In this document: piece after piece, positions 13,303 to 32,843 of the stretch
How positions within the stretch are numbered: the stretch's first letter is position 1
Layout of the letters: every line of letters starts with the position of its first letter
IMG/VR virus record: IMGVR_UViG_3300032218_003260
DNA length: 64,000 nucleotides
Source of the DNA: a virus
Lineage: Duplodnaviria; Caudoviricetes
Reading direction: 5' to 3' (one strand)
Program-made: the position numbers and the translations under genes
The notes under the pieces: generated by a model
Seen by the model: the letters and a program-made list of their open reading frames with translations, nothing else
Told to the model about the DNA's origin: nothing
The model's database searches: none

Positions 13303-14151
13303 CTATTTTGACTCATTTATATCTAAATGGGTCGCCGGCTCTGGACCCGTGGTAGCCTGCGCGGCAAGCGCTAGCTCGTGCTGCTTGATCTGCGATTCTA
13401 CCCAATCCCGGTACATACTCACACGGGTAAAAGCACTGTCGTCGCCATACGTGCCGTCCGGTTTACCGTCGTCGTGGGCCAGAAACGAATTAATTCCGGC
13501 TAATTCGTTGCCGATAAACATTCCGCCGCCAGAATCACCGGGGGCAATCATGAACTCTAGCGGAAACCGGCCGTCTTTGCGGGGGGCGCAGGCGACCACC
13601 GAGAGAAACGCCGCCGAAAGCTTATTCTGTCCGGCGCGGCGTTGGTTGTCTGATTTGGTGGCGCCCGTTGTAAAGTTTCCAGTTGAACCCCAGCCCGCGA
13701 TGGTGACAGCCTGCCCAAGTTCATCTGCTTTTGTGTACAGCGGCACGTAGAAGTTCAGCTTGAAATCATCGTCAACATAACAGAGCGCAATGTCGTGCAG
13801 GCCAACTTTGTTTTCGTTGTAGTCCTTGTGCTGCACCTTGTAGGCCACGTGGTGTTTCTTCTCGCCAACATAAATCACGTCGTCTTTGGAGCCGTTAATA
13901 ACATGCGCCGCGGTCAACGCCCAGTGCGGTCTAATAATGACCGCTGATGCCAGTTGTTCGTGGTTCTTTTCGCACTTCTTGCAGTCGACGTTATTGGTAA
14001 TTCGGACTACAAACGGAAATTGCTTGCCAAATTCGACGTACTTGTCGTCGGGAGTGCTGGGGTCGATCGTGCCGGCCATCGCGGCACGCGATACAGCCAA
14101 GAGAATAATCACGAATCGTAGTAGGCGGGCAAATAGTTCTTGCACGTTCAT
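13303..14151 (-). CDS. S1 (chymotrypsin-fold) serine protease with signal peptide
   Basis: LTAAH; HDIAL; GDSGGG; hydrophobic N-terminus. Confidence 0.9.
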   Translation of the reverse strand: MNVQELFARLLRFVIILLAVSRAAMAGTIDPSTPDDKYVEFGKQFPFVVRITNNVDCKKCEKNHEQLASAVIIRPHWALTAAHVINGSKDDVIYVGEKKHHVAYKVQHKDYNENKVGLHDIALCYVDDDFKLNFYVPLYTKADELGQAVTIAGWGSTGNFTTGATKSDNQRRAGQNKLSAAFLSVVACAPRKDGRFPLEFMIAPGDSGGGMFIGNELAGINSFLAHDDGKPDGTYGDDSAFTRVSMYRDWVESQIKQHELALAAQATTGPEPATHLDINESK

Positions 14152-16912: not shown

Positions 16913-19900
16913 TCAGCGGTTAGCGGTATACGCGACGCCCGCACCACCCGCTGCAAGCCCGCCGACCCCGGCTGCGCCATAGCCCACGCGCTTAGCCATT
17001 GGGACCATGGGCGATGCCACGGTCATGCCGTAGCGAATCGCGGGGCCGTACACCATCTTGCTCAGCGTCGGATTCACGCCGGATTCCTGCGGCTTGTACA
17101 CCATGCTGTGATCGGCTGCGTTCATACCTTGTAGCCGCCGGGGCGATAACTGAAACTCAACAGGTGTGCCTTTGAGCGTCCCTTTGATGTTATGCCCATG
17201 ATAGCCGGGGCGCATTAACATCTTGGACCCAGTGATTTGCACACCAGCGTCTGTCAGTTGTTTTGTTAACGAATCAACAGCAGGTTGACCGTAGCCTTGG
17301 CTGGACGAAAGCCGAAAGCCAAGTAAGTCGTTGGTGACTTGATCTGTTCCGTGGCCTGCGATGCTTCCGGGTGTCTTCACGCGGCCGGCATATGTCTGGA
17401 AACCCTGCGGCTTGAACGACGACAAGAACTCGTTGCCAGCCTGCAGGGCTTGATTGCGCTCGGCGTGCAGGATGCCTTCGGGGACAGAATTACCCAGCGT
17501 CGTCATGGGCCCGCGGAACGACTGGCGCGCAGCTGTCATGCCTTTCGACAGCCCTTTGAAACCCAGCCTGCGTCCAAGCCCCATAGCGCCAGAAACTAAC
17601 CCAGCCGACTTTTCTTTCGCGTCGGGCCAGCCGGGTTTGAGCTGGTAGTCATACACAGGCTCGCCGGCCAACAGCTGCTGCTTGGCCAATGTGGGCACAG
17701 CGCCAGCGATCGAACCGTCTGGTTGGGGCTGTAACCGATAGCGTTCTTTCAGCCACTGTTTATGATATTCAGGCGTTTCTTTGGCCAGCCGATCAAACTG
17801 CTGCGTGGCGATAAACGTGTTGATATCATCCGGCGTCATCGTAATCGGGTGCAGCTTTTCGCGCTGTTTTTTCAGGGGCGTGATGCTGTAATGCACACCC
17901 TCTTGTAGCGGCGTTTTATTTTCGCGCTCTGCTAGGTGTTTGCGCAGCCGGTCAAGCACGGCCTGTTGTTTTTTTTTATTACCGGGTAACACAGCGCGGG
18001 CTTCACCAGTGCGGGCGTTGTTATATGCAATCCCGGGATGGTCTAACTCGTCCAAAATAGTATGCAAAGACTTGCGCAGGTTTACGCCTTGTACGTCGCC
18101 GTCAAAGCGATACACGCCGGCTTTTTTATCTGTCACTTGTCTGGCCGCGGCGTCAGCTTTAAACCCGCCCAGCGTCTTCTTGCCGTAGTGCGCGAGCATG
18201 GGCGCAGAAGACGCCAGCATGTATGTGGGCAGGCCAATAAACGCCGATCGGCCGCCCTTGAGCTTCATCTGGCGCATGAGCTTGGCGCCCCGACGAGACG
18301 CATCAAACTCAGACGCTAACATCGGCACTGCGCCGACTGTACCCGCAATCGCCGAGTTCCGAGAGTTAGTCTCGTTGTTTGAAAGCAGCGCGCCGGCCGT
18401 ACCTAATCCCAGCGCCGGCCGACCGATTTGATTACCGCGCATGAGCCATTTGCCGCCCATGTGGTGCCCGATCTCGTGCGCTAACACGCCGGGGTTACTC
18501 ATGCGCGGACTATGGCCAATCGTGGGTTTTGATATCCCCATACCCGGATTTGCCGGTGTATAAAACGCGGGGGTGTTGCGCACACTATCAGCCGCTGAAC
18601 GGCGCATTCTGTACTTGATGTTATTCATGAGATCGCCAAGCCAGTTGCCCGTTGTTTTAGGTGCTATCTTTGGGTCAATCTTGCTGGCAACGTTCAAACT
18701 ATCTGTCACATCTACGCCCTGCCCCTTTGCGTAGTCACTGAGTTGTTGCCACGCTTGCGATGTTTCAAGCGTCGGCACAGCGTTCATTTCTGGGCGCGCA
18801 ACACGGTTCATGTACGCAGTTAATGGCACGCCAATCGCAGCATTTGTCGCCGGCATGCCACCGAGGTACCAGCCCATCGAGTGCCCTAAACCGGGCTTAG
18901 CGGGTTCTTTTTTTTTTGCTTCGATTGCGCTTTTTTTACCAAAACGCGCAGCAAAATCTGCGGGCGATACCGGGCGAATCGAAGGCGGCGCGGCTGTTGT
19001 TGCTGGGGCGGCCGGCGGTGTGGCCGGCGCTGCAGTGGGCGATACAGGGCGCTGCATAACTGGCGAGGGAGCCGGACGAGCTGCCGGGGCTGGGCTTGGT
19101 CGCGGAACAGCAGTTGGAGCCGGCTGCGCAACTGGCGTGGGTCTAGCTTGCTGCGAAACAGGAGCGGGAACCGGACGCGCTGCCGGCCGAGGTGCTGACG
19201 TTACCGCTTGCCCCGCTCCGGTGGCGCGTTGCGTGTCTATTCGCTGGCGCATCAGCTGATAATTTTGCAATTTTTGCCATTCTGGTACGCCGTCGTTCAC
19301 GTTTACAACGTTTTTCATGTAACTACTGAGGTCGGCGCTCGTGGGCCGTGCAGGCATTTTGAACGGTGTGCGCGCAGCTGCCGCAATTGGTTTTTTCGCA
19401 ACTCCGCTGACCGCTTTACCAGCCATGCGACCAATCGAGCTGAGTAAACCGGCCATCTTCTCCCCGCCTACAGAATTGGCTGTCCCAAACGCGGCGTTCC
19501 CTGTGATATCACCCGTCGAAGACAACGCGCCGTATGAATTAATAGGATTGGCGTTGGGAGACGAACCGCCGCCAACAGGGGGTAGTTGGCCAGACGGAGC
19601 AGGCGAGCCCGTGTTTGCTGGCTGGGCGGCGGGAGCCTGTGGTTGGCCTTGTGGCGCCTGTGCCTGCATACCCATAGGGAGCGGCGTACCCATCGCCGGC
19701 ATGGCATATCGCTTAATTCCGGCGTTTGCAGGCATCCGGGCAGCCTCTCGGGCCTCCATTTCAGCCCTTTCATTCTCCATCGCCTGCATAATGGGCTGCG
19801 ACAAAACAGCAGAAAGCTTCGCCATTAACGTGTTTACACCATAATTTGGCTTTGTTTCCGAGTTACATCTTTCGCCCTTGGTTTTAACGACCTTGGGTGG

Positions 19901-22393: not shown

Positions 22394-23536
22394 TCAACCA
22401 ATCGACCGGGTTTTGAGAACCAGCTTTTCCTGCGCGGGCCATAACAGCATTTGCTGCATGGTATCCGTGCTGGTGACATCCTTGAGCAGCTTGAGGGCTG
22501 CTGCGGGATTCGCCTGTAGAACCTCGGGAGCTGGCTTCTCTTCTTTGCACGCCCGAGATAGATCGTCATACCGCGTGTACGTATCCCACACCCAATCATC
22601 GCCGTTCTCGGGGTTGTGCTTTTGCAGCTCCCCGGTCACGTAATGATTGGTTTGCACAAGGCCGTGTTTCCTTGTGCGGATGTAGGTATGTTCCCCGGTA
22701 TGTGTTACGACCGCGTGTTCTTTATCTTTTGTACCGACCACGTGCGCGAAGAATGGCACCATGGTTTGCTGCGTACGGAGATGAAAAACAAGCTTCTCGT
22801 AACTTGGCATCTTGTCACAGACTGCTCGGACCCGATGTAAAGCAGGCCACGCTTGAAGCAGGTCTTTAACAGATGCCGCGGTGTTCGTCATGTAGGCAAA
22901 CATCGCACTTAACGACTCCCACCAGCCCGAATCTGTGTCGTCTTCGTCTTCTTCTTCGACGAGTGACTTCACAATCGGAGCTTGGTTGACCACCAGCCCC
23001 CACTGGTCTGACATCGCGCTGACGACGCCCACCATGCCCGCTACGCCTACTGACGTATAGCTTTTGCGGCCACGATGAAAGCGAATCAGCTTGGTGTGCT
23101 TCCCAGTGGAAGGAGGCGTCACCCAGTCCATGTTGCGCACAATGACTGGGCTGGAATTCACATCGAAGCTGGCCGAACTGCAGCCACAACCATACATCTC
23201 AGCGAGAGACGTAAAGTCGTAGATTAAGTTCCCCAGCAGAAGCTTGCCGACAGGAATCTCAGCGTGCTTCGCAATGCACCGGAGTTCCTGCGGATACTCA
23301 AGGTCTGTACCCGTGAGGATCCAGTTCCCGAGTTGTCCGCCGCCGCTTGTCACACTCTTTACGACGCTTTTCATGGTGTCAGAAAGGTGTGGCAAGATTT
23401 CCTCGTCGACATGGGTTTCCACGTCTTCAAGAATGGCCTGAATCGCGTCGCCGTTCTGACGCGCGAATCCGGCCCAGCGTTCGTCTGGCGGGGCATCCAG
23501 ATCGATGTCATGAAGCTTTCCGGTATACAGTTTCAT
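22394..23536 (-). CDS. Ntn-hydrolase, acid ceramidase/NAAA/C45-like
   Basis: IDLDAPPDERW; YGC-G-CSS (Cys nucleophile); RNMDW; QTNHY; start MKLYTGK at 23536. Confidence 0.8.
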   Translation of the reverse strand: MKLYTGKLHDIDLDAPPDERWAGFARQNGDAIQAILEDVETHVDEEILPHLSDTMKSVVKSVTSGGGQLGNWILTGTDLEYPQELRCIAKHAEIPVGKLLLGNLIYDFTSLAEMYGCGCSSASFDVNSSPVIVRNMDWVTPPSTGKHTKLIRFHRGRKSYTSVGVAGMVGVVSAMSDQWGLVVNQAPIVKSLVEEEDEDDTDSGWWESLSAMFAYMTNTAASVKDLLQAWPALHRVRAVCDKMPSYEKLVFHLRTQQTMVPFFAHVVGTKDKEHAVVTHTGEHTYIRTRKHGLVQTNHYVTGELQKHNPENGDDWVWDTYTRYDDLSRACKEEKPAPEVLQANPAAALKLLKDVTSTDTMQQMLLWPAQEKLVLKTRSIG

Positions 23537-23862
23537 GACGTTTTCCTTTCCAGCTTCTCGATCCGCTCGTGCAAGAGGTCGATCGCTTGCTGATGTGCGC
23601 GCGAATGCGCCCAAACGCGTTCACGCCCAGCGGCAAGATCGGTCACAGACTTGCGCAAATTGTCGAGCGCCGCGCTGTTCATCTTGTCGAGTTCCATGAG
23701 CTGGCCGATCATGTTCAGCACTCGGTTCTCGCGCCGCTCGATCTCAGACACGCGATCACGCAGCTCAATGAGACTGTGGATAGTCTTCATCAGGTGCGTG
23801 TGCGTTGCCACGTTGCCGCTCTCCAGCAGAGCAGCAATATCGGTTTCAAACAGCTGACTCAT
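23533..23862 (-). CDS. coiled-coil hypothetical protein
   Basis: Heptad pattern; ATGA overlap with the downstream gene. Confidence 0.65.
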   Translation of the reverse strand: MSQLFETDIAALLESGNVATHTHLMKTIHSLIELRDRVSEIERRENRVLNMIGQLMELDKMNSAALDNLRKSVTDLAAGRERVWAHSRAHQQAIDLLHERIEKLERKTS

Positions 23863-29377: not shown

Positions 29378-29783
29378 TGGCTGGTTGAGAAGGCAACCAT
29401 TTACCCAAGCCCAACACCTAGCGAATGCGTTGGCACCATCGCGAAAGTCTCGACTCAGGGATGTGGTGCTAACGGGCATACTGGGTTTGCGGGGCTTGCA
29501 CGGTAACGAGTGATGTTACCCAAATAAGTGCTTACCTAGCCGCATAACAGTATTGCTACTACCCTCCCACAACATTAAGGAGCATAACTTCCCCCCGCAT
29601 TTCGCAGCGCTGTACACACGCTGCCGAGACAATAACCCGGGCGGGAGTCGAACCCGCAAGCCTTTCGGCACTGGAACCTAAATCCAGCGCGTCTGCCAGT
29701 TCCGCCACCGAGTTGAAAGATGTGGCTGGTTGATAGGGCAACCATTTAACCAAGCCCAACACCTAGCGAATGCGTTGGCACCA
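29378..29783. repeat. 61-bp near-identical direct repeat at 29378-29438 and 29723-29783
   Basis: TGGCTGGTTGA..GGCAACCATTTA.CCAAGCCCAACACCTAGCGAATGCGTTGGCACCA; differences fall mainly in a hairpin loop. Confidence 0.85.
29633..29714 (-). tRNA. tRNA-Leu(UAG)
   Basis: Cloverleaf with long variable arm; anticodon arm CTGGA-TTTAGGT-TCCAG; no encoded CCA. Confidence 0.92.
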
Positions 29784-29796
29784 CAATTTGTTTGTA

Positions 29797-29973
29797 CTAG
29801 ACGAGCTGCGGCCGAAGCTGTTTTTCAACTTCGGCTCTCAGATTTTCGACTGCCTCCAGACACTTCTGGCGGTTCTCGGGAGTTACGCTCTCGGCGTCCG
29901 CGATCGCTCGACGCGTCCAAGTCGTGCAATCTAAAATCGCCAACACTTGCGCCGGCGTCAAATGAAAAACCAT
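29797..29973 (-). CDS. hypothetical protein (58 aa)
   Basis: Not in the ORF track. AAAGGA RBS; MVFHLTPAQVLAILDC... Confidence 0.55.
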   Translation of the reverse strand: MVFHLTPAQVLAILDCTTWTRRAIADAESVTPENRQKCLEAVENLRAEVEKQLRPQLV

Positions 29974-29996
29974 TTGGTTCCTTTCTGTTAAAAAAG

Positions 29997-30233
29997 CTAT
30001 GACCCCATGAGCGTTGCGACTTGATCCAGCGTCGCGTTCTTCAAATCAAACGGCGCAGACCAATTGCCGGCGATTTCGATCGGCGTTTCGCTCTTGAGGA
30101 TAATGACGCGCACGAAATCATCCCGGCCATGACAATCGGACAACGCCGTCTTTGCAGCGTCCATGTCGTCGCTCTCGACGATAGCGACGCCAAAACCGGC
30201 ATTGCCCGGAACAAAACCCAACGCTGCAATCAT
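29997..30233 (-). CDS. hypothetical protein
   Basis: AAGGAGG RBS. Confidence 0.6.
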   Translation of the reverse strand: MIAALGFVPGNAGFGVAIVESDDMDAAKTALSDCHGRDDFVRVIILKSETPIEIAGNWSAPFDLKNATLDQVATLMGS

Positions 30234-30273
30234 GTTTTCCTCCTTCGCGTGGTGTTAAAAACAATCGCACCAT

Positions 30274-30346
30274 TGACCCCACGGGGATTCGAACCCCGGT
30301 AAACGGAACGAAAATCCGTTGTCCTAGGCCACTAGACGATGGGGCC
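30274..30346 (-). tRNA. tRNA-Glu(UUC)
   Basis: Cloverleaf; ACGGA-TTTTCGT-TCCGT. Confidence 0.92.
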
Positions 30347-30355
30347 AGTGTCGTC

Positions 30356-30541
30356 TCAGTCTACCTTTTCGACGTTTAACGCGATAAGAAAACCGCACAT
30401 TTGCGCGAACGTGATCAGCTGCTTCTCTTTGAGTTTGAAGAAATCTGCAAAGTGAGCAAACAGATCGCAGGGCGACAAGTCTGTGGGGTTCTGCGTTTCG
30501 CGCAACTTAGATATCAATTCGGCTGCTCGTTCCAGTGTCAT
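30356..30541 (-). CDS. hypothetical protein (61 aa)
   Basis: AAGGAG RBS, ATG 30541. Confidence 0.55.
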   Translation of the reverse strand: MTLERAAELISKLRETQNPTDLSPCDLFAHFADFFKLKEKQLITFAQMCGFLIALNVEKVD

Positions 30542-30577
30542 CTCGCTGCTCCTTCGTGTAAAGATAACAAAACCCAA

Positions 30578-30648
30578 TGGGCCGCCAAGGAATCGAACCT
30601 TGCATCGCGAGTTAATAAGACTCGCTTGCCTACCAGTTTCCGCGGCCC
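30578..30648 (-). tRNA. atypical tRNA-Ile(UAU), possibly a pseudo-tRNA
   Basis: Perfect acceptor stem GGGCCGC/GCGGCCC and T-arm; anticodon loop CUUAUUA; short non-pairing D-arm; U at position 37. Confidence 0.6.
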
Positions 30649-30711
30649 GCGTGGGTGGGGCGCCAGAGGCTTGGGCTACCTCCAGCGCCCCACCGTCAGC
30701 GAGTCTACGCT

Positions 30712-31074
30712 TCAGCGGTAGCGTTTGCACGCATACCACCGGCCATCCCTGCCACGCGCGACCCCTTGGTCTACGACCGCTCTGCCGCTGTTGCTGTAGC
30801 AGCAGTTGCCCAGCGCCTGTTCAGGCGTCGAGCCCGTGCCGACGCCTTCGTAGCCTGAGTTCCCGCCGTGATGTCCCATGCGGCCATTGCTGGCCTGAAG
30901 CTCGGCTACGCCCTGCGCCGAACCGGTGTGCCCGGCATAAGACGTAGCGTACGAGTAGGACTTGACGGGAGCCGGAACCTGAGACGGCGTGTAGTGGCGC
31001 CTATGTCGCGGGGCAGCATGCGCAACGCTGACCATCGAAAGAACGACTGCTACACACATGAGAAAACGAAACAT
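30712..31074 (-). CDS. small secreted protein, CAP-like (GHHGG...EGVG...CC)
   Basis: Signal peptide from ATG 31074; MGHHGGNSGYEGVGTGSTPEQALGNCC...WYACKRY. Confidence 0.65.
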   Translation of the reverse strand: MFRFLMCVAVVLSMVSVAHAAPRHRRHYTPSQVPAPVKSYSYATSYAGHTGSAQGVAELQASNGRMGHHGGNSGYEGVGTGSTPEQALGNCCYSNSGRAVVDQGVARGRDGRWYACKRYR

Positions 31075-31162
31075 AACGATCCTCCGTGATCCTGTCGCGG
31101 GTGTGCGCGACGTCAAAAAAAGAACCCCACACCGGGTTACACAAACAGACGGTTTCCCGTCT

Positions 31163-31537
31163 TTACGCGGCAGCGAGCTTACGGCGTTTGGCCGCAGCGC
31201 GGCGCAGCTTGACCTCCGGCAAACCCCGCGGACGGCACAATGCGTACTGTACCGCGGCAGCCAGCAGCGCGTTCGAGTTTCGCTGAGAGAACACGTATCC
31301 ACCGTTCTTGTCGTTTGCCAGAAACGGATTACCCTTCCACTTATCAGGGCTCTTGGGATACTTCTTGACACGCTCGTCGAGCCACACTTCGGCCGCATGC
31401 TGGCGAACTTTGTAGAACGTGTTCATCGCCATGGCCCGCAGACCGAGCGTGCGACGATACACATTAACCTGCTCAAAAATCTCCCGCATGAACGACCGAC
31501 AACCGCAGCCCTTGGGGGCAACAAACTGGATCTTCAT
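31163..31537 (-). CDS. hypothetical protein
   Basis: AAGGAG RBS; 124 aa. Confidence 0.6.
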   Translation of the reverse strand: MKIQFVAPKGCGCRSFMREIFEQVNVYRRTLGLRAMAMNTFYKVRQHAAEVWLDERVKKYPKSPDKWKGNPFLANDKNGGYVFSQRNSNALLAAAVQYALCRPRGLPEVKLRRAAAKRRKLAAA

Positions 31538-31663
31538 CAGAATCTCCTTCTATCATCCCTGAACTTACAGCTGTTACGCGCAGCTGTTTCCCATAGAAAT
31601 CATCGCCGCGTAAAGACGATGATTGTTTTGATATCAACGGGATTGAAGAGTAACCCGGATAAA

Positions 31664-31737
31664 TAGGCGCAAAGGGACTCGAACCCCTAACCCCCTGCAT
31701 GTAAAGCAGGTGCTCTGACCAATTGAGCTATGCGCCT
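31664..31737 (-). tRNA. tRNA-Val(UAC)
   Basis: Cloverleaf; CCTGC-TTTACAT-GCAGG. Confidence 0.93.
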
Positions 31738-31743
31738 GCGAGA

Positions 31744-32100
31744 CTACGCCTCGCGCTCTCGCTCGCGGCGTTGACGCCGACGAGCCCACGGAGACCGGTT
31801 CCAGTACCAGCCCCGCCAGCGATTGCAATACGCACGCCAGCGCCGACGCAACTTGTGATACCACTTGTTGCGGCCGATACCGGTGAGGTACTGCTGCGTC
31901 CAGAATTCCATCGACTCGTCTGACGTACCATCCACGTAGCTTTCGCCGCAGTCGAAGCATCGGTTCGCCGGCACACGATACATAGGAACTTTGTGCATTG
32001 TTCCATCAATGCGCATCGTCACGATGTCGTTGAACTCGACCGCTTCGATGCGACCACCGCAGTGAATGCACTTCAACGACTTGTAAACCGGATTACCCAT
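31744..32100 (-). CDS. YgiT/MqsA-type zinc-finger protein
   Basis: CIHCGG...VPANRCFDCGESY; GGAGG RBS at ATG 32100. Confidence 0.7.
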   Translation of the reverse strand: MGNPVYKSLKCIHCGGRIEAVEFNDIVTMRIDGTMHKVPMYRVPANRCFDCGESYVDGTSDESMEFWTQQYLTGIGRNKWYHKLRRRWRAYCNRWRGWYWNRSPWARRRQRREREREA

Positions 32101-32112
32101 ACAGCCCTCCAA

Positions 32113-32198
32113 TGGCCAAGGCGGGACTCGAACCCGCACGGGAAATTACTCCCAGCGGATTTTAAGTCCGCTGCGTCTGCCGATTTCGCCACTTAGCC
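32113..32198 (-). tRNA. tRNA-Leu(UAA)
   Basis: Cloverleaf with long variable arm; GCGGA-CTTAAAA-TCCGC. Confidence 0.94.
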
Positions 32199-32207
32199 AG
32201 CCGCCCG

Positions 32208-32504
32208 CTAGACCAGCGCAGGCTCTTGCGGAGCCGGATACTGCTCGGGATGTGCGATGTGCCGAAATCTATCTTTACCAGTACGGCTGTGCGTGCCGAA
32301 CTTGTCTCGGCTGTGCATCGCATCGCGAACGTATTCAAACGCATGTTCCAGAGTCAGAAACTGCCCGTACGTCATCGACTGCCCGGCGCCGATTTTGCCG
32401 GCGAGATCCTGCGTTATCGCAAGCATCTTTTCCAACTCGATACCGATACGCTCGTTGTAGTAATCGGCCGTAGCTTCGTTGTCATCTCGTTCTTGTGTCA
32501 CCAT
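32208..32504 (-). CDS. hypothetical protein
   Basis: About 98 aa; start uncertain (32504 or 32528). Confidence 0.5.
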   Translation of the reverse strand: MVTQERDDNEATADYYNERIGIELEKMLAITQDLAGKIGAGQSMTYGQFLTLEHAFEYVRDAMHSRDKFGTHSRTGKDRFRHIAHPEQYPAPQEPALV

Positions 32505-32715
32505 TCCAGACGTACCTCTTGTCGCCAATCTGGCACCACCACCGCTGCCCGTCGTTCCAGTAGACGGGAGTCACAGACGGAGATGGCGGTTGCAGCGTTG
32601 TCGGCGCTGGGTGCGCCTTCTGATACTCTTCATAGCTCTGCCACGCGATTCCCGCAAGCATCAGCAACGCCGTCACCAAACCAATCAGATTTCCCTTGAT
32701 TTCGATACCACTCAT
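32482..32715 (-). CDS. small membrane protein
   Basis: AAGGAGG RBS; single TM segment. Confidence 0.6.
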   Translation of the reverse strand: MSGIEIKGNLIGLVTALLMLAGIAWQSYEEYQKAHPAPTTLQPPSPSVTPVYWNDGQRWWCQIGDKRYVWNGDTRTR

Positions 32716-32764
32716 TTCAAAACCTCCTTGTTTGGAAATGACCTTTGAACAACCAATCGAACAA

Positions 32765-32837
32765 TGGGCCCTGTGGGATTCGAACCCACGACCAAAGGAT
32801 TAAAAGTCCCTTGCTCTACCAACTGAGCTAAAGGCCC
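32765..32837 (-). tRNA. tRNA-Lys(UUU)
   Basis: Cloverleaf; AGGGA-CTTTTAA-TCCTT. Confidence 0.95.
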
Positions 32838-32843
32838 ACGCGC

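Follow-up and report, generated by a model that had tools for sequence, protein, structure and literature searches.

A divergent RelA/SpoT-type domain in the accessory cassette of a modular protein from a large freshwater phage

Homology and active site of the C-terminal domain

RelA/SpoT-fold enzymes serve as weapons in bacteria (toxSAS, the toxic small alarmone synthetases; CapRel; Tas1) and in temperate phages (Apk2). The DNA analysed here is a stretch of 64,000 nucleotides (the window) of IMG/VR virus record IMGVR_UViG_3300032218_003260, from an uncultured lake phage of about 200 kb. A single open reading frame (ORF) of 1270 amino acids on its minus strand, P0001, ends in a domain of about 200 residues that is a very divergent, apparently intact RelA/SpoT-type pyrophosphokinase. 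It represents a strongly divergent new branch of a known kind, the RelA/SpoT homologue (RSH) effector domains of phage polyvalent and polymorphic proteins, and is set apart by the distinctive module that partners it and by its trimmed donor site. Large freshwater phages hold in this branch an RSH lineage that is invisible to standard annotation.

An earlier note, made from the letters of the window, had placed a toxSAS-like domain at 17090-17400, which corresponds to residues ~1109-1212 of P0001 and lies wholly within that ORF. All five strings on which it relied, GRVKTPGSI, DLLGFR, GYHGHN, EFQL and HxxxYK (here HSMVYK), are present in P0001, and the motifs span residues 1115-1211. The check that it proposed gave no support: the Pfam RelA_SpoT hidden Markov model has no match in P0001 or in its last 271 residues, even with E values up to 10, and a six-frame search of three related phage genomes with the same model (PF04607) found none with E up to 1. 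The PHROG scan of P0001 and its last 271 residues returned no RelA_SpoT match either, none of 50,697 phage records (INPHARED) was matched by blastn or tblastn, and in the PDB a phmmer search with the domain alone yielded nothing above noise (a sortase, E about 1).

The RelA/SpoT fold is nevertheless upheld by the family profile and by the AlphaFold2 (AF2) model. When 1.84 billion representative proteins were searched exhaustively with phmmer, only 34 clusters proved to carry the domain, and 32 of them were aligned. A word-indexed profile search with this family alignment retrieved family members only, while its profile against the PDB placed RelA/SpoT synthetases at all of ranks 1 to 11, led by FaRel2 (E 5.8e-5) and RelQ (1.7e-4) and including SAS1, Rel and RelP. 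A separate profile, built from the stand-alone sub-family described below, matched the same synthetases. Taken individually, five of the 32 relatives match Pfam RelA_SpoT, weakly (best 2.2e-5). The AF2 model built with the family alignment has a mean predicted local distance difference test score (pLDDT) of 87.2 and a predicted template modelling score of 0.79, and its top Foldseek matches in the PDB are all RSH synthetases. A structural alignment independent of Foldseek gave SAS2 (Z 11.1, 155 residues, root-mean-square deviation 3.6), RelP (10.9) and SAS1 (10.4), these three aligning over 153-155 residues, followed by the exported SaEAS (9.8), Rel (9.7), CapRel (8.3) and Tas1 (8.1), with FaRel2 at 5.3. 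The ten best structural matches are all RSH proteins and are separated by a clear gap from generic nucleotidyltransferases, which reach at most 6.9. Searches of BFVD and the ESM Atlas by structure and by language-model features retrieved viral RelA/SpoT proteins, among them other long 'polyvalent' phage proteins. Because profile, structure and language-model searches converge while Pfam fails, residues ~1082-1244 are homologous to RelA/SpoT synthetases at a distance below Pfam's reach, a relationship that shows up only when a family profile or a modelled structure is used.

The residues that line the synthetase active site are retained. R1115, K1117, S1121, D1133, Y1175, E1190, Q1192, H1206, Y1210 and K1211 are each invariant or else conserved to 90% or more among aligned sequences that are otherwise 25-80% identical; the Syn2 Asp is invariant in all 32, and the spacing from the catalytic Glu to the His and to the YK pair (16 and 20 residues) is kept throughout the family. 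In FaRel2 structures, R64, K66, S70, D90 and Y128 are among the residues assigned to binding of donor ATP, Mg ion and acceptor base (PMC11782079), and each has its counterpart in P0001. Apart from the shortened helix after Syn1, described below, two departures are found: the final Arg of Syn2 varies across the alignment (R, Q or K), and Syn4 is continued by S/T-P-R-R (S-P-R-R in P0001) rather than I-R-T. In its conserved residues the active site looks intact, and catalysis is predicted. The RSH core also has the lowest ratio of nonsynonymous to synonymous substitution rates (dN/dS) in the gene, 0.024 at dS 0.34, when compared with the 96%-identical gene for P0002 on sister contig L010. A chance resemblance of motifs, or a dead domain retained as structure only, would agree with the failure of the Pfam model and with the truncation of the helix that follows Syn1; with three kinds of search converging on RelA/SpoT, every catalytic residue conserved at such overall identities and purifying selection this strong, it is hardly credible.

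The earlier note was also right that the His usual in GYxxxH is Asn here. This Asn is near-invariant in the family alignment, where Syn3 has the consensus G-Y-[HK]-G-x-N with G, Y, G and N all near-invariant, and two members read G-Y-K-G-I-N. Since G-Y-H-G-x-N is itself the family consensus, the change from His to Asn is, as judged from the alignment, a family-wide character and not a lesion.

The accessory cassette and its relatives

P0001 is built of successive modules on a constant scaffold. Its N-terminal head, M-P-F-K-S-E-K-Q-R-R-F-L-W-A-x-H-P-x-L-A-K-R-W-A-H-E-Y-P, is the most constant part of the protein family, and in databases it matches, weakly, only phrog_1375, a group without assigned function. 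The HExxH region further on keeps its H, E and H invariant across 11 sequences. The AF2 model of this region is poor (pLDDT 53), and its top structural matches, to ImmA/IrrE-type and other HExxH peptidases, are weak (Z 4-5.4). Between head and HExxH region lies a Pro/Ala-rich low-complexity stretch of ~170 residues (~430-600 of P0001; window ~18930-19440, minus strand), which is missing in P0002; that protein, of 1096 amino acids, is 96% identical to P0001 outside the stretch.

What follows the HExxH region is accessory. The orthologue on sister contig L009 and seven other close relatives, which are 82-93% identical in the HExxH region, stop a few residues after it: orthologues P0043-P0049 end in A-R-Q-x-x-A-G-K-P-G-R and a stop codon, at the point where P0001 and P0002 carry on with K-K-A-G and the cassette (window ~18120-18140, minus strand; compared with L009:8001-10397). 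The cassette consists in P0001 of an acylphosphatase-like domain, a second domain designated X and, as last module, the RSH domain. Because close positional orthologues stop exactly where the cassette starts, the RSH domain belongs, on sequence comparison, to a swappable accessory cassette at the C-terminus of a constant scaffold, an arrangement like that of polymorphic toxins. In some positional orthologues, DUF6321 takes the place of the cassette. Constraint on the gene is weakest in the Gly/Ala-rich tail that ends P0001 (dN/dS 0.21).

The acylphosphatase-like module is recognised by Pfam weakly in P0001 (E 0.0072) and more strongly in relatives (1.6e-7), and its profile matches acylphosphatase-like chains and the HypF N-domain in the PDB. 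Its phosphate loop, V-Q-G-V-x-L-R-K, and the Asn at the catalytic position are invariant. Domain X has its own invariant pattern, R-Y-x-L ... G ... G ... A..Q-L ... P-x-Y..Q. At least 12 representatives have the two together with the RSH domain, in either order, the RSH domain coming first in P0010 and P0024. The RSH branch behaves in this way as a swappable C-terminal cassette with an acylphosphatase-like partner, a partnership not discussed in such a context. Other relatives join the RSH domain to 2H-SAK, KTSC, MazG, P-loop kinase (AAA_18/33), GNAT or DUF6321 domains.

RSH domains also occur alone, as forms of ~220 amino acids in smaller phage contigs (L005:9932-10615, L006:9965-10660 and L007:2388-3047, and further P0026, P0031 and P0033). 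These stand-alone forms open with a common leader of 20-30 residues, A-F-x-D-E-L-x-K-I-A ... E-L-E-K-x-A, immediately before the fold, and by its sequence this leader looks like a targeting or cleavage propeptide. In L006 the stand-alone gene sits between a gene for a 2018-residue RNA-polymerase-like protein and the large terminase gene. Three genes upstream of the RSH-like gene, the 2018-residue ORF (L006:23-6079) has matches to several PHROGs annotated as phage 'RNA polymerase beta subunit'.

In 2017 Iyer, Burroughs, Anand, de Souza and Aravind (PMC5512222) reported RelA/SpoT domains from the polyvalent ('Swiss-army-knife') proteins of phages, and P0001 is of this kind. Several unrelated enzymatic modules (HExxH, acylphosphatase-like, RSH) stand in one polypeptide and are shuffled among relatives. 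The multi-enzyme phage proteins described in that study, too, have an RSH domain and an HExxH peptidase-like module (a tentative assignment in P0001), and were proposed to manipulate the host at or soon after entry; the partners of the present RSH relatives (2H-SAK, KTSC, MazG, kinases, GNAT) belong to their characteristic domain set. The present clade differs in lying below Pfam detection, in coming from freshwater phages of ~200 kb and in possessing the acylphosphatase-like module, of which PMC5512222 makes no mention.

Predicted activity, acceptor and delivery

The reading that we favour, with moderate confidence, is that a divergent and catalytically competent RSH pyrophosphokinase is carried in the accessory cassette as a host-directed effector. 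The RSH domain would take the beta-gamma pyrophosphate of ATP and place it on the 3'-OH of an acceptor ribose, and the effector would, early in infection, disturb the nucleotide pools, transcription or translation of the host. By analogy it is probably an effector of a kind already described for phages, as it fits the literature on polyvalent proteins (PMC5512222) and on MuF-Apk2 toxins (PMC10083569, PMC12226406). The compact domain of ~200 residues is suited to assays of (p)ppApp, (p)ppGpp or tRNA chemistry, and the sister phages form a natural pair with and without it.

The acceptor is most likely an adenine nucleotide, giving (p)ppApp, a call that falls a little short of an even chance. It is favoured because the G-x-N of Syn3 is common to this family and to Apk2, a synthetase specific for (p)ppApp that has G-x-N where guanosine enzymes have S-x-H (Paulet et al., PMC12226406). 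The wild-type Syn3 of Apk2 from S. pneumoniae (Apk2snu), translated from published mutagenesis primers, reads P-Y-K-G-V-N, so that Y-[KH]-G-[VI]-N is a signature of both. The call stays modest because Syn2 (G-F-R) and Syn4 (L-S) of P0001 lack the Apk2 signatures R-Y-T and Y-H, because swaps of such motifs in Apk2 left its specificity unchanged (PMC12226406), and because the closest structures are small alarmone synthetase (SAS) enzymes that make (p)ppGpp (Z 10-11), above the (p)ppApp synthetase Tas1 (Z 8.1).

These structures bear on a second possibility, that the domain is a (p)ppGpp-making or promiscuous alarmone synthetase that shuts down RNA polymerase and the making of ribosomes in the host, the phage meanwhile relying on transcription machinery of its own. 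Its nearest structures (Z 9.8-11.1) are SAS1, SAS2 and RelP, which make (p)ppGpp, and SaEAS, which is exported and promiscuous; the Syn2 sequence D-L-L-G-F-R is nearer to the SAS type than to the Apk2 type, and Iyer et al. suggested an alarmone-like host shut-off for such domains (PMC5512222). The Syn3 S-x-H that has been described as recognising guanosine is, however, replaced by G-x-N throughout the family, and this alternative appears unlikely.

A third possible acceptor is the 3'-CCA end of tRNA, whose pyrophosphorylation, as by FaRel2, PhRel2 and CapRel, would block translation. FaRel2 is the best match of the sequence profile, a Gly stands two residues after the acceptor Tyr as it does in FaRel2, and CapRel is among the structural matches with Z 8.3. 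Yet FaRel2, whose target is the terminal adenosine of tRNA, reads G-x-H at Syn3 and so retains the His where this family has Asn; SAS enzymes, with Z 10-11, score above both CapRel and FaRel2 (5.3); and the phage itself needs translation, its own tRNA genes being exposed to the same attack. Modification of tRNA is given a low probability.

As to how an adenine-directed or other RSH effector would reach the host, virion packaging is plausible by analogy. It is favoured by the polyvalent architecture, the invariant HExxH, the K-x-A/S motifs found at domain junctions (with E-K-S-A directly before the RSH domain), the leaders of the stand-alone forms and the position of the stand-alone gene in L006. 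That P0001 enters the virion as a precursor, is cleaved at K-x-A junctions and reaches the host along with the DNA may be regarded as an evenly balanced proposition. The conceptual model is Alt of phage T4, an ADP-ribosyltransferase that is packaged as a precursor, is clipped by the head protease and, once injected, modifies the host (PMC5512222 gives a summary); the enzyme is unrelated, and packaging and cleavage of P0001 are hypothetical.

Besides the failures of the Pfam model and the acceptor evidence given above, several points weigh against an active, injected effector. The basic helix after Syn1, in which K74 and R77 of FaRel2 hold the donor's beta and gamma phosphates, is trimmed to a stub of ~6 residues (model residues 90-95) lacking conserved Lys or Arg, the gap between Syn1 and Syn2 being only 11-12 residues. 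Massive depletion of ATP would harm the phage too. The motif K-x-[AS]-[AG] is not enriched in P0001, with six occurrences against 3.9 ± 1.9 expected (366 of 2000 shuffles reach six), and the junction motif could simply be part of the first helix of the domain. Finally, Pfam and PHROG scans revealed no homology to a known virion protein and no MuF or PAAR domain.

The last point leads to the most substantial alternative, that the protein is made in the infected cell without being packaged and acts there, for example on nucleotide signals used in host defence, jointly with the other domains for nucleotide handling that its relatives carry. P0001 resembles no known structural or ejection protein, its gene neighbours are enzymes (SNF2 helicase, trypsin-like protease, thioredoxin, N-terminal nucleophile (NTN) hydrolase), and relatives bear 2H phosphoesterase, MazG and kinase domains. 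On the other side, and circumstantially, a polyvalent architecture with a swappable cassette on a constant head and K-x-A junctions suits a packaged, processed cargo, as does the place of the L006 stand-alone form between a giant RNA-polymerase-like gene and the terminase gene. Action without packaging is a real possibility, although we rate it clearly below even.

A further elaboration of the packaged effector is that the acylphosphatase-like, X and RSH domains make up a self-contained two-enzyme weapon, carried in the capsid, set free at E-K-x-A by the head protease and injected, in which the acylphosphatase-like partner would restrain the synthetase in cis as a fused 'immunity' or act on the product or on an acyl-phosphate. 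The acylphosphatase-like and RSH modules stay together in both gene orders, and the short N-terminal leader of the stand-alone forms ends in E-K-x-A. A predicted complex of the acylphosphatase-X module with the RSH domain scored 0.00 ('no answer') and counts neither way. The scheme is speculative and rather improbable; if true, the two-enzyme cassette would be a new chemistry for host take-over by phages.

Among other known systems, the MuF-fused (p)ppApp synthetase toxins of the Apk2 type in temperate phages (PMC10083569, PMC12226406) share with P0001 not only the Syn3 signature but also an overall arrangement, with a conserved phage domain at the N-terminus and an RSH toxin cassette at the C-terminus. 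P0001 differs in having no MuF domain in the Pfam scan, in its Syn2 and Syn4, in the absence of an IapK/Tis1-like or Aph1 immunity gene after it, and in belonging to what looks like a large lytic-type phage and not a prophage. For Apk2 itself, its authors consider actual injection of such enzymes by phages to be still an open question (PMC10083569). Tas1 (Apk1; PDB 6OX6), a (p)ppApp synthetase effector of the type VI secretion system (T6SS), is likewise a delivered protein that ends in a toxin domain of RSH fold, as P0001 would be. PAAR/T6SS delivery and the cognate immunity protein Tis1 are peculiar to Tas1, and the family profiles have no match to it at the sequence level. With the toxSAS enzymes (FaRel, FaRel2, PhRel2, CapRel; PMC11782079) the family has donor-site and catalytic residues in common, as well as its best profile match. 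P0001 is, however, not a small stand-alone toxin with an adjacent or fused antitoxin, possesses no pseudo-zinc-finger domain, and has the truncated basic helix after Syn1 and Asn for His in Syn3.

Genome context, immunity search and feature coordinates

The window is phage DNA, containing collagen-like and lectin-type tail-fibre genes, five tRNA genes, and genes for a SNF2 helicase and a trypsin-like protease; no attached host genome was found in it. Relatives are located on viral contigs of 150-203 kb, one of them complete with terminal repeats. P0001 heads a leftward block and is followed by a small variable gene, a gene for a protein of 671 amino acids, the trypsin-like gene and the SNF2 helicase gene, while an NTN-hydrolase-like gene and thioredoxin precede it in gene order. 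Contigs L009 and L010 are syntenic with this region. Scanning for promoters and terminators near P0001 added no information.

The small gene directly downstream of P0001 (16386-16841, minus strand) encodes 151 amino acids with a transmembrane-like segment at the N-terminus. The gene resembles neither of the Cys-rich genes of 177 and 204 amino acids in the same slot of sister phages L009 and L010, which marks the slot as variable; the slot genes of L010, which bears the RSH domain, and of L009, which does not, have a motif in common on reading of their sequences. As a cognate immunity gene the downstream gene was rejected, for the slot does not co-vary with the cassette and differs between the two RSH-bearing phages. 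A nested antisense immunity gene was rejected as well, the antisense ORFs being Arg/Cys-rich and implausible. No HD_4 alarmone hydrolase was found in the related phage genomes (two of them 94-100% complete, one 76%).

The earlier designation 'toxSAS-like' holds in so far as a RelA/SpoT-synthetase fold with its catalytic residues is present in a large modular phage protein, and fails in the strict sense, as no linked antitoxin or immunity gene accompanies it. Since none was found, the locus is not a toxSAS toxin-antitoxin module; the RSH domain may still act enzymatically like toxSAS. Coordinates of P0001 and its parts are collected in Table 1.

Table 1. Position of P0001, its modules and its predicted active-site motifs in the window (residue numbers are those of P0001)
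Feature	Coordinates	Strand	Basis or correspondence
P0001, whole gene, modular polyvalent-type phage protein	16913..20725	-	ORF and translation; positional orthologue of P0049 and P0002
Constant N-terminal head, ~30 residues	20636..20725	-	Found in P0001-P0003 and P0043-P0049 regardless of C-terminal cargo
HExxH (zincin-like) region, residues ~600-865	18131..18928	-	HEIGH at 18464-18478
Acylphosphatase-like domain and ~110-residue X domain, residues 866-1045	17591..18130	-	Pfam and PDB profile matches
E-K-S-A, residues 1038-1041, candidate processing site ahead of the RelA/SpoT-like domain	17603..17614	-	K-x-A/S at the boundary in most long and stand-alone relatives
RelA/SpoT-synthetase-fold core, residues 1082-1244	16994..17482	-	AF2 pLDDT >90 over most of it; structure matches
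Syn1 R-V-K-T-P-G-S (R1115, K1117, S1121), donor ATP phosphate binding by alignment	17363..17383	-	FaRel2 R64, K66, S70
Syn2 D-L-L-G-F-R, residues 1133-1138 (D1133, Mg-binding Asp by alignment)	17312..17329	-	Catalytic D90 of FaRel2
Syn3/G-loop G-Y-H-G-H-N, residues 1174-1179 (Y1175, acceptor-base stacking by alignment; N1179 for the usual His)	17189..17206	-	FaRel2 G-Y128-R-G-I-H
Syn4 E-F-Q, residues 1190-1192 (E1190, catalytic Glu by alignment; Q1192)	17150..17158	-	FaRel2 E-I-Q
Syn5 H-S-M-V-Y-K, residues 1206-1211 (H1206, Y1210, K1211)	17093..17110	-	FaRel2 H-x-x-x-Y-K
Gly/Ala-rich hydrophobic C-terminal tail, residues 1245-1270	16916..16993	-	Conserved in the long sub-family; low-confidence helix prediction

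Two of the neighbouring protein genes, the NTN-hydrolase-like gene (AAT / NAAA-beta; 22394-23614, minus strand) and the trypsin-like serine protease gene (13303-14151, minus strand), flank the block and are conserved in the syntenic sister contigs. The tRNA genes form a cluster at 29633-32838 on the minus strand and comprise Leu-TAG, Glu-TTC, Val-TAC, Leu-TAA and Lys-TTT.

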